From contig CAZPFF010000006.1 in NCBI GenBank assembly GCA_964585835.1, forward strand, positions 1 to 24,229: a stretch of DNA of 24,229 nucleotides. Reading direction: 5' to 3'. A program made the translations under genes and the position numbers. Under the pieces are notes generated by a model. It made no database searches, had not been told where the DNA came from, and was given only the letters and a program-made list of their open reading frames with translations. How positions within the stretch are numbered: the stretch's first letter is position 1; each line of letters begins with the position of its first letter. The DNA is from an uncultured Candidatus Saccharibacteria bacterium (GTDB lineage: Bacteria; Patescibacteriota; Minisyncoccia; Phycocordibacterales; GWA1-40-21). Below, one piece after another: positions 1,605-2,795 of the stretch.

Positions 1605-1698
1605 GTCATTGCGAGGCTTTGCGAAGCAATCCAGGTCTTAATAATATTCTGTAACTAAAGGTCTGGATTGCTTCGTCGGAAGACCTTCTCGCAATGAC
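1605..1698 (+). repeat. Structured intergenic repeat, copy 1. A ~94-nt element that folds into a long two-stem hairpin: outer stem GTCATTGCGAG/CTCGCAATGAC, inner ~17-bp stem GAAGCAATCCAGGTCTT/AAAGGTCTGGATTGCTTC.
   Basis: It is nearly identical to the element at 2703-2795. Both arms are perfectly complementary. It sits between the uvrC stop and the shared terminator. Confidence 0.8.
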
Positions 1699-1702
1699 AA
1701 AC

Positions 1703-1730
1703 AAAAACCACTCAAGTGAGTGGTTTTTGT
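1703..1730. terminator. Bidirectional intrinsic terminator between the convergent uvrC (+) and rpmA (-) genes.
   Basis: Sequence aaaaaCCACTCaagtGAGTGGttttt. The 6-bp GC-containing stem with a 4-nt loop is flanked by an A-run on one side and a T-run on the other, so it can terminate in both directions. Confidence 0.8.
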
Positions 1731-1737
1731 ATAAGAT

Positions 1738-2013
1738 TTAGGCAATGATTGAAACAATCTTCTTGCGAACATTCTTGGAGTCAAAGTTGGTCTTGCGCTT
1801 GGTGCCGAACTTTACTTTTCCTTCTGCTAGAGCAAAAAGAGTATGATCAGAACCTACACCAACGTTCTTTCCAGCCATGACTTCACGGCCTTTCTGACGG
1901 ACAATGATTGAACCAATTTTGGCAATCTGACCATCATAGAGTTTAATACCGAGGTATCTTGGATTGGAATCTCTACCGTTTTTGGACACACCGGCAGCTT
2001 TTTTTGTGGACAT
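1738..2013 (-). CDS. rpmA: 50S ribosomal protein L27.
   Basis: The 91-aa product ([20 protein letters not shown]...[34 protein letters not shown]) is a full-length match to the bacterial L27 family. Confidence 0.95.
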
Positions 2014-2050
2014 TGTATTTTTTACCCGAAAAAAAGATTACCGACTGGAT

Positions 2051-2069
2051 CCCCGCCTTCGCGGGGACG
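2051..2069 (-). promoter_or_regulatory. GC-rich hairpin (CCCCGC-gaag-GCGGGG) in the rpmA 5' leader and divergent promoter region. It may be a leader or attenuator structure.
   Basis: A perfect 6-bp GC stem with a GAAG loop, about 40 nt upstream of the rpmA start. On the minus strand it is followed by ...ctttttttcggg. The adjacent small palindrome gacaat-tccg-attgtc (2080-2097) may be an operator. Confidence 0.3.
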
Positions 2070-2172
2070 ACAATCGGAATTGTCGATTTTAAAGGGTGGG
2101 TGAATTTATATAGTAAATCTGGAAAACATATAGCTTTCCGGATAAACAATCAAACCTTTACCCGAGTCCCCA

Positions 2173-2685
2173 GTGAAGTACATAGCATCACCAGGCCCGA
2201 ACTTATGTTATAATTGCCTTGTGAGTATAAAAGATTTTAAGGAAAAAATCAAGTCCCGGTTTGACAGTGGTCGGGATAAGTTGGTTGGCCGGGCCAAACT
2301 CCTAGCCAATGACCGCTGGCCGGCCGATATCTTCATTATTGTGGCTTTTGTCTTGGTGGCCGTGATTAGCTTTGGGTTGGGCAAGCTCTCATCCTTTGAG
2401 ACCAAACGTCCACCACTAATCTTTGGACACGACGAGAGTCTGGTGGCTGAGATTGATGTCAAAGGGCAAGTCCAAACTACCGTTAGTTCAAATTCCACAC
2501 CACCTAATGGTCAGACGGTAGGTTCTGAAGTAGTTGTTGCTTCCAAGACTGGCAAAAAGTATCATTACCCTTGGTGTGCCGGAGCCAAACAAATTAGCGA
2601 GGCCAACAAAATCACTTTTCAGACTTTTGCCGCCGCCAAAGCAGCTGGGTATGAACCAGCCAGTAATTGCCCAGGACTTAAGTAA
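2173..2685 (+). CDS. Hypothetical membrane-anchored protein with one TM helix (IFIIVAFVLVAVISFGLG) and a C-terminal Cys motif domain (YHYPWCAG...GYEPASNCPG).
   Basis: A 170-aa ORF, about 52% GC. The start is uncertain and may be GTG 2221. A possible TATAAT -10 lies at 2209-2214, which would place the true start downstream of 2173. The C-terminal YHxPxC...N...F.....GYxP..C motif recurs in small secreted or membrane DNA- and metal-binding domains. No confident family assignment was possible. Confidence 0.55.
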   Translation: MKYIASPGPNLCYNCLVSIKDFKEKIKSRFDSGRDKLVGRAKLLANDRWPADIFIIVAFVLVAVISFGLGKLSSFETKRPPLIFGHDESLVAEIDVKGQVQTTVSSNSTPPNGQTVGSEVVVASKTGKKYHYPWCAGAKQISEANKITFQTFAAAKAAGYEPASNCPGLK

Positions 2686-2702
2686 TTTTTAATCTCTGTA
2701 TT

Positions 2703-2795
2703 GTCATTGCGAGCCTTGCGAAGCAATCCAGGTTTTGTTGATATCTTATAACTAAAGGTCTGGATTGCTTCGTCGTAAGACCTCCTCGCAATGAC
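2703..2795 (+). repeat. Structured intergenic repeat, copy 2. Same family as 1605-1698 and same orientation.
   Basis: Both stems are conserved against copy 1, including one C-to-U change that keeps a G-U wobble pair. The differences are concentrated in the loop and bulge. The element overlaps the first ATG (2791) of the downstream ORF. Confidence 0.8.

Follow-up and report, generated by a model that had tools for sequence, protein, structure and literature searches.

On contig CAZPFF010000006.1 of an uncultured Candidatus Saccharibacteria bacterium (assembly GCA_964585835.1), two copies of a structured repeat of about 94 nt lie in intergenic spaces close to rpmA, within the 24,229-nt stretch that was analysed (positions 1 to 24,229, hereafter the window). 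Each copy consists of two inverted arms, and by this architecture both belong to the superfamily of repeats described as CGTC-REPs and as Ssn-related motifs (SRMs); their subtype, called here the ATTGC type, is associated with genes for the GIY-YIG nuclease Ssn. The window copies are head-to-head dimers of this superfamily, and we consider it likely that they represent gene-less sites of the Ssn/repeat system, which acts on single-stranded DNA; the fold of the arms and their function in this organism we infer. The link between such repeats and the Ssn nuclease has been published (Chenal et al., 2025, Nat Commun 16:2388, PMC11893778), and the window repeats are a little-described subtype of this known system.

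Two head-to-head dimers of one tagged arm

Read on its own strand, an arm runs from a YGTC tag through ATTGC, GAG, a module, GAA and GCAAT to a CCAG tail, and an element is made of two inverted arms with their tags facing outward. With tag bases included, copy 1 occupies 1604-1699 and copy 2 occupies 2702-2796, one base more on each side than the units that the initial annotation had placed, at the same sites, at 1605-1698 and 2703-2795. Copy 1 opens with a short-form left arm on the plus strand (1604..1634; CGTC-ATTGC-GAG-GCTTTGC-GAA-GCAAT-CCAG; arm profile E=2.5e-6), a layout common to 241 arms from other genomes, and closes with a long-form right arm on the minus strand (1663..1699; TGTC-ATTGC-GAG-AAGGTCTTCCGAC-GAA-GCAAT-CCAG), assigned, like both arms of copy 2, by sequence and arm profile. 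The spacer between them (1635..1662) ends in GTCTT and AAAGGTC, which lengthen the inner stem in RNA and DNA folds, and its middle forms an 18-nt loop. Copy 2 has the same plan: a short left arm on the plus strand (2702..2731; TGTC-ATTGC-GAG-CCTTGC-GAA-GCAAT-CCAG), a spacer with its loop, placed from the sequence and both kinds of fold (2732..2759), and a long right arm on the minus strand (2760..2796; TGTC-ATTGC-GAG-GAGGTCTTACGAC-GAA-GCAAT-CCAG) that holds the ATG at 2791. Both dimers have 28-nt spacers, and because each pairs a short arm with a long one, an asymmetric internal loop had been noted between their stems.

The copies had been put at about 90% identity, and in a global alignment of 96 columns they match at 84, differ at 11 and have one gap; a repeat finder run on the window reports 88% identity across 84 nt. 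Because the 40-nt flanks of the two copies are unrelated (14/40 and 11/40 identical), the repeated unit stops exactly at the ends of the element. The perfect 11-nt terminal stem, GTCATTGCGAG paired with CTCGCAATGAC, is exact in all four window arms. An inner stem of about 17 bp is also present, although 17 pairs are reached only if two G·U (in DNA, G·T) pairs are allowed, and the 17-mer that forms it, GAAGCAATCCAGGTCTT, occurs four times at ≤3 mismatches against 0.04 expected. Differences between the copies do fall mostly in loops and bulges (besides one tag base, the left module differs at about two positions, the loop at about five and the right module at two), and the single change in the inner stem, C to T, leaves a G·T pair; with two copies, this distribution, including the change that keeps the wobble, carries no statistical weight. 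Both copies fold strongly as RNA (copy 1, -44.8 kcal/mol, z -8.5; copy 2, -40.6 kcal/mol, z -6.9) and as DNA (-25.7 kcal/mol, z -8.2; -24.5 kcal/mol, z -7.2), and in RNA folding the complementary strand does about equally well. By standard DNA energy rules, strong folding is a property of the whole dimer and not of lone arms.

We then scanned genomes, one per species, for GTCATTGCGAG followed by 50-80 free bases and CTCGCAATGAC. Contigs with this terminus pattern number at least 120 among the genomes, where they span many phyla, and at least 120 in a viral collection. By record title, the genome matches listed include Alphaproteobacteria (Bradyrhizobium, sphingomonads, Rhodospirillales, Rickettsiales), Bacteroidota (Mucilaginibacter, Pedobacter, Flavobacterium), Gamma- and Deltaproteobacteria, Chloroflexi, Planctomycetota, one cyanobacterium and Patescibacteria. 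The interior, left free in the scan, still keeps GAAGCAATCC...GGATTGCTTC. Conversely, in loci chosen by an inner 17-mer the termini are still conserved, with occasional single-base variants; this 17-mer, meant as a lineage-specific probe, is common in high-GC soil bacteria and served as a sample unselected for termini.

Across the family, modules are variable and often form a mini-hairpin of their own; 12-19 nt (GAG, module and GAA) lie between the stem halves. The commonest short module is CGNAGC, where N is any of the four bases, and the long module is GAGCGNAGCGAC or a variable hairpin such as CCGCCGAAGGCGG or GGCCCCAAAGGGGCC. Short/short, short/long and long/short dimers all occur, with spacers that vary in sequence and length. 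Adjacent arms no more than 120 nt apart are predominantly head to head (308, against 16 tail to tail and 10 in tandem, over all loci). GTC is preceded by C in 67% of 134 elements and by T in 28%, and the second base outward from GTC is a pyrimidine on the left and a purine on the right; the flanks are otherwise random. By crude gene calls made here, 59 elements lie between co-directional, 25 between convergent and 7 between divergent genes, and 32 more overlap a called open reading frame (ORF), mostly at its ends; the closest landmark is the upstream stop codon, at a median distance of about 20 nt.

In Bradyrhizobium-like contigs (L018 4140-4234, L061 4514-4631, L243 and L167) the module position is taken up by another small palindromic repeat of unrelated sequence, GAGCC-AACGGG-hairpin-CCCGATGAC-AGGCTC, which points to nested insertion at this position of the arm.

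ATTGC-type arms flank genes for the nuclease Ssn

In Neisseria, the nuclease SsnA binds the 28-nt NTS repeat (CGTCATTCCCGCGMAVGCGGGAATCYRG, with dRS3 inside it) solely when this is folded single-stranded DNA; duplex DNA and RNA are not bound. Binding needs the 5' tag, or conserved upstream bases, together with the stem sequence, and tolerates loop changes and insertions; SsnA nicks a few nucleotides 5' of the repeat and lowers both transformation by NTS-carrying DNA and the integration of incoming single strands with repeats (PMC11893778). The same study remarked on an insertion-sequence-like NTS-ssnA-NTS arrangement, defined a degenerate SRM pattern and, in a survey of Ssn homologues, found an SRM nearby in 71% and on both sides in 42%.

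We searched for genes between outward-facing arms. Five cases had such arms more than 120 nt apart; one of them enclosed a GIY-YIG gene and the rest were uninformative. In the informative locus, L207, a 96-aa ORF with GIY-YIG as its sole domain stands exactly at the position of a dimer spacer. Four further repeat-selected loci also hold a homologue, in each case with arms directly at its sides, and when homologues of the L207 protein were fetched together with their contigs, every distinct locus was bracketed by ATTGC-type arms with the tags outward. Arms of this type flank ssn in L207, L375-377, L368, L364, L413, L415/416, L394, L396, L155, L187, L138 and L160. The packing is tight: in L377, the dnaK stop codon is followed by an arm, ATT, the ATG, the gene and a TAG stop codon that overlaps the second arm. 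Among the repeat-selected loci listed, ssn itself is rare (0/120 genome, 0/120 viral and 5/120 metagenome loci), as expected if most copies of the repeat are gene-less.

The association also appears when loci are selected through the protein. Most of 27 viral-collection loci chosen by protein pattern alone (44-58% identity) are bracketed by tagged repeats, of the types ATTCCCGC, ATCCCAGC, ATCCCGCAC, ATTCT, ATTGC and others, and six of six fetched plasmid-collection records are flanked by tagged repeats (N. gonorrhoeae, N. aromaticivorans pNL2, A. lipoferum 4B, S. meliloti, Planktothrix and Spirosoma). With the inverted-repeat bracket score cut at 18 or above, 26/30 ssn genes qualify versus 21/135 other genes of the same loci, and several of the 21 positive control genes share a repeat cluster with the ssn gene. 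The nearest-neighbour protein carries the same arm type in 21/26 cases; arm type tracks nuclease lineage. The Patescibacteria-type Ssn protein P0121 shares 57% identity with the protein that NTS flanks in N. gonorrhoeae, and by sequence it matches only one solved structure, UPF0213 1ZG2.

Several settings of these units were seen along the way. Three related Patescibacteria-type contigs (L207, L375-L377 and the L409 entry) carry an arm-ssn-arm unit that separates dnaK from dnaJ; in Azospirillum lipoferum 4B another such unit separates sufB from sufC, within an operon whose order is conserved in other respects. Two Ssn lineages (L364-L367, with the L364 gene at 3001-3297, and L413, 2501-2791) lie inside diversity-generating retroelement cassettes, between bAvd and the reverse transcriptase gene and with repeat clusters on both sides; these cassettes use single-stranded cDNA.

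Arms closely resembling those of the window stand beside ssn in other Patescibacteria-type contigs. The module of the copy 1 right arm, AAGGTCTTCCGAC, recurs in an arm next to ssn in L413, whose protein P0142 is source-named Candidatus Paceibacterota, and GAGCCTTGGCGAAGCAATCCAG, nearly the copy 2 left arm, lies directly upstream of ssn in L415/L416, whose protein P0181 is also Paceibacterota-named. This recurrence of both arm subtypes beside ssn bears on the proposal that one intergenic hairpin was duplicated locally, with no wider significance. The window copies are indeed each other's closest relatives (84/96; the best metagenome match among those listed reaches a local score of 44 of 94), and all three repeat units in 34 kb of the contig fall within 1.2 kb, but the similarity stops exactly at the element boundaries, and the same termini and inner motif recur in hundreds of unrelated loci, which favours a family as the initial annotation had framed the choice. 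We regard a local duplication as quite improbable; it is refuted as a complete explanation, yet the second copy may have originated in that way.

Relation to catalogued repeats and mobile elements

CGTC-REPs were described as four families, CGTC-1 to CGTC-4 (Di Nocera, De Gregorio and Rocco, 2013, BMC Genomics 14:522, PMC3733652), of which Neisseria dRS3 and Rickettsia RPE-6 belong to CGTC-1 and Rickettsia RPE-4 to CGTC-4. The window arms share their unpaired tag, CGTC with variants TGTC and CCTC (CGTC at 1604-1607 and TGTC at 2702-2705 on the plus strand, and TGTC at 1699-1696 and 2796-2793 on the minus strand); their CCA tail, all four arms finishing in GCAAT-CCAG; and the A,T opening of their stem, which in the window starts AT...AT. 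Published CGTC-REPs, like the repeats studied here, form mainly head-to-head dimers with 20-100-bp spacers, heterodimers being common, and lie between co-directional or convergent genes near stop codons; occasionally a copy sits in frame within a repair gene. The peptides listed in the published supplement are of the ATTCCCGC, ATCGCCGGG and ATTCCGTGG types, with none of the ATTGC type among them, and Patescibacteria, Chloroflexi and Planctomycetota fall outside the five phyla reported for CGTC-REPs. A full-text literature search for the repeat DNA strings and translated peptides returned unrelated primer matches or nothing.

SRMs too are oriented repeats with a 5' CGTC followed by AT(T), a hairpin and an AATCCAG-type 3' end; by inspection all four window arms fit this plan, with the 3' consensus A-T-C-Y-R-G. 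SRMs reach hundreds of copies in some genomes and form repeat-gene-repeat units around a GIY-YIG gene of ~90-100 aa. Their repeat type co-evolves with the nuclease. We re-found these features independently for the ATTGC subtype, whose arms flank genes of the Ssn family (cd10448-like GIY-YIG). The Chenal study mentions neither Patescibacteria nor Bradyrhizobium and does not cite the 2013 REP paper (PMC11893778). CGTC-REPs and SRMs are the same repeats under two names. A hybrid head-to-head dimer in L178 (~885-1005) joins an NTS-type arm (TGTCATTCCCGCGTAGGCGGGAATCCAGG; ATTCCCGC...GCGGGAAT) to an ATTGC-type arm, so the two types are interchangeable partners of one superfamily.

Several observations weigh against assigning the window copies to this system. 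The published SRM pattern, HGTCWYN(0-2)YYVSBRHN(0-5)WNVSBRGN(0-2)RNCYNB, matches the NTS control and none of 241 ATTGC arms, and nothing in the window. An ATTGC arm has five Watson-Crick pairs (ATTGC/GCAAT), with G opposite A at the sixth position, around a module of 12-19 nt, whereas published CGTC-REP stems have 8-9 bp and loops of 4-5 nt, and SRMs have 7-8 bp around a 4-nt loop. Taken singly, the window arms are also predicted to be unstable (-2.6 to -2.8 kcal/mol, z ~0, by standard DNA energy rules). Profile and gene searches over 34 kb of the contig found no ssn gene and no further repeat, so the window copies may be orphan sites. The biochemical evidence of binding and cleavage comes from NTS-type repeats of Neisseria and Wolbachia only (PMC11893778), and the stem alignment of 23 arms on which the covariation described next is based was curated by hand.

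In that alignment, which spans different arm types, the stem directly after the tag has double changes in 6/6 pairs and 88.6% of cells paired; shuffles give 68% paired, 0/500 reaching the observed value, and slid partner columns give 12-49%. For the ATTGC type, five of the pairs form. The purine-rich core between the stem halves is regular, (GAG)n-C-GNA-G-(CGA)n, and its sequence suggests that the arm could be stabilised by tandem G·A pairs and a GNA triloop, which the energy model does not credit. Motifs of this kind are unusually stable in DNA mini-hairpins.

Palindromic elements can also lie within genes. ATTGC-type dimers occur in long ORFs assigned by Pfam to UvrA (L048 2835-2921, 87 nt, uvrA) and GMP synthase (L041 4466-4543, 78 nt, guaA); with lengths that are multiples of three, they look like in-frame insertions of the Rickettsia palindromic element kind. 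RPE-4 and RPE-6 resemble them in sitting in frame, and differ in stem sequence; the window copies are intergenic.

The initial annotation had offered a miniature inverted-repeat element with terminal inverted repeats as one interpretation, and part of it holds: the termini are inverted repeats, the copies have a non-autonomous look, and gene-carrying relatives exist. A classical element of this class would be a deletion derivative of an insertion sequence, moved as duplex DNA by a DDE transposase, and the perfect 11-12-bp terminal repeats, small size and many dispersed copies would suit it. We found, however, no direct repeats indicative of target-site duplication at the ends of 134 elements, and in 2.7 Mb of fetched loci no transposase gene between or next to arms; the GIY-YIG nuclease gene is the only gene seen bracketed. 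For CGTC-REPs too, no dedicated enzyme was found and associations with transposase genes were only fortuitous (PMC3733652). We therefore judge a classical miniature inverted-repeat origin very improbable.

The layout is also that of REPINs, in which two inverted REPs form one long hairpin, are intergenic and leave no target duplication, and whose repeats bracket one or a few protein genes in each genome while many copies are gene-less (Bertels and Rainey, 2011; Nunvar et al., 2010). It is nevertheless very unlikely that the window copies are classical REP doublets mobilised by a RAYT of the IS200/IS605 type: their tag is YGTC and not the GTAG or GTGG that RAYT recognises, no RAYT gene was flanked by CGTC-type repeats in the species studied (PMC3733652), and the gene flanked here encodes a hydrolysing GIY-YIG nuclease, unrelated to the HUH tyrosine transposase with its covalent intermediate. 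On the Ssn reading that we favour, the window copies would relate to the Ssn system as REPINs do to the RAYT gene, and would have been inserted as discrete units into two 3'-proximal intergenic spaces.

A further step, which we put forward tentatively and consider doubtful, is that the arm-ssn-arm unit (~370 bp in L377 and L207) is a minimal autonomous mobile element of which the gene-less dimers are non-autonomous copies, spreading by a single-strand process initiated by the GIY-YIG nuclease. Such spread might, for example, begin with nicks on opposite strands, each 5' of a tag, and proceed through copy repair for which the arms provide portable homology. If so, the subtype, with a purine-rich arm core of the form ATTGC-(GAG)n-C-GNA-G-(CGA)n-A-GCAAT, would lie outside both catalogues and would amount to a very large extension of the Ssn system, to Patescibacteria, Chloroflexi, Planctomycetota and Bacteroidota.

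Genomic setting and level of action

Copy 1 lies between the convergent genes uvrC (293-1597, plus strand) and rpmA, encoding L27 (1738-2013, minus strand), and copy 2 between co-directional genes, an ORF with no Pfam match (2173-2685, plus strand) and a DEDD exonuclease gene recognised by Pfam (2791 or 2821 to 3411, plus strand). The intergenic location downstream of genes given for both copies in the initial annotation is thus borne out, as is the overlap of copy 2 with the annotated ATG at 2791, which sits within its right arm. Because the Pfam exonuclease domain begins only at residue 12 of the ORF that starts at 2791, and a second ATG stands at 2821, the true start is probably 2821, in which case copy 2 is fully intergenic. 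A perfect TATAAT lies at 2809-2814, 6 nt upstream of this second ATG. The arrangement suggests a misplaced start and perhaps a leaderless transcript.

Such positions would also suit a cis-acting RNA element of untranslated regions, one that ends transcripts, protects them from 3' exonucleases or marks where they are processed, and that is selected for its RNA hairpin. Both copies follow plus-strand genes and have very stable RNA folds, family members prefer positions after stop codons, and on the plus strand the right-arm modules, GTC-GGAA-GAC and GTC-GUAA-GAC, present GNRA-like loops. REPs of E. coli stabilise upstream mRNA. The strand tests, made on about 130 family members, point elsewhere: asymmetric dimers show no preferred orientation relative to transcription (20 short/long, 13 long/short), and among isolated stem mismatches those giving G·U number 28 on the sense strand versus 30 on the antisense strand, transversions being commoner (63). 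Both strands of the window copies fold equally well, and a search of Rfam 15 with the window and 15 loci, a check that had been proposed for these repeats, gave no match at gathering or permissive thresholds, the best sub-threshold hits being chance-level miRNA and sRNA models. Neither copy leads into a T-run, as an intrinsic terminator would (AAACAAAAACC comes after copy 1, AGAAGAGAGC after copy 2), and a terminator scan reports only a separate hairpin of 13 pairs with A/T-rich flanks at 1701-1730, between uvrC and rpmA; because this hairpin is present, copy 1 is not needed for termination. A generic RNA hairpin would also leave unexplained why the unpaired tag and tail are conserved and why GCAAT is invariant. 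The 3' preference of the elements fits an RNA role and the strand tests do not, and the earlier suggestions of selection on RNA structure and of a role in transcript stability or processing are unsupported. We found no sign of RNA-level selection in these data; the window elements are not a new structured RNA, and a cis-acting role of this kind is unlikely. The repeat is also unlike attC sites, dif-like sites, CRISPR repeats and self-cleaving ribozymes in core sequence, and as no Rfam family matched either, we dropped these candidates.

On the reading of the copies as Ssn-system sites, they would act, if at all, at the DNA level, while the region is single-stranded during uptake, replication or repair, and the hairpin that they add to uvrC or downstream transcripts would be a by-product.

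A single unit of the NTS/CGTC-1 type (TGTCGTCCCCGCGAAGGCGGGGATCCAG; TGTC-GT-CCCCGC-GAAG-GCGGGG-AT-CCAG) lies on the minus strand at 2045-2072, between rpmA and the ORF at 2173-2685. It is one base off the published SRM pattern, with G in place of A/T after the tag, and unlike the lone window arms it is stable in a DNA fold (-9.2 kcal/mol, z -2.9). In the readable 34 kb of the contig (the window and a further 10 kb), the two dimers and this singleton are the only tagged repeats, all within 1.2 kb around rpmA. Other contigs with the same L27 protein have identical gene order and spacing and so are uninformative about presence or absence at the uvrC-rpmA site; the nearest UvrC outside the 100%-identity cluster of the query is only 62% identical, and the few UvrC homologues that carry names include Minisyncoccia and Paceibacterota.

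Elsewhere in the window, direct repeats of ~105 nt, 92-97% identical (17199-17303 and 18452-18554), flank a 186-aa Fer4_12 gene (17501-18061, minus strand), and each holds a long terminator-like palindrome (AAAAACGCCCTCGCAAAAAATCAAA / TTTGATTTTTTGCGAGGGCG). An 836-aa protein encoded at 4396-6906 on the plus strand of this Patescibacteria-type contig matches the shoulder domain of the major vault protein (PF11978, E=2e-27) and, weakly, the Vault_3 repeat. Four paralogous class-I tRNA-synthetase genes (PF00579, Tyr/Trp type) lie within 8 kb in this small-genome organism (L405 4007-7695 and 10689-11648, the latter corresponding to window 22221-23180).

For the window itself, these hairpins are most probably sites of a recently characterised single-stranded-DNA nuclease/repeat system, and not a riboregulator. 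The repeat accounts for the probably wrong exonuclease start, and for many spurious 'hypothetical proteins' translated from such repeats. For the family, the question left in 2013 of which enzyme serves CGTC-REPs appears to be answered by the 2025 work, and the very abundant ATTGC...GCAAT subtype evades the published SRM pattern, so that surveys using this pattern undercount the system. The Ssn system reaches Patescibacteria. Members of this group depend on DNA uptake, and it could therefore matter for them to have a nuclease that cleaves entering single strands where these are marked.

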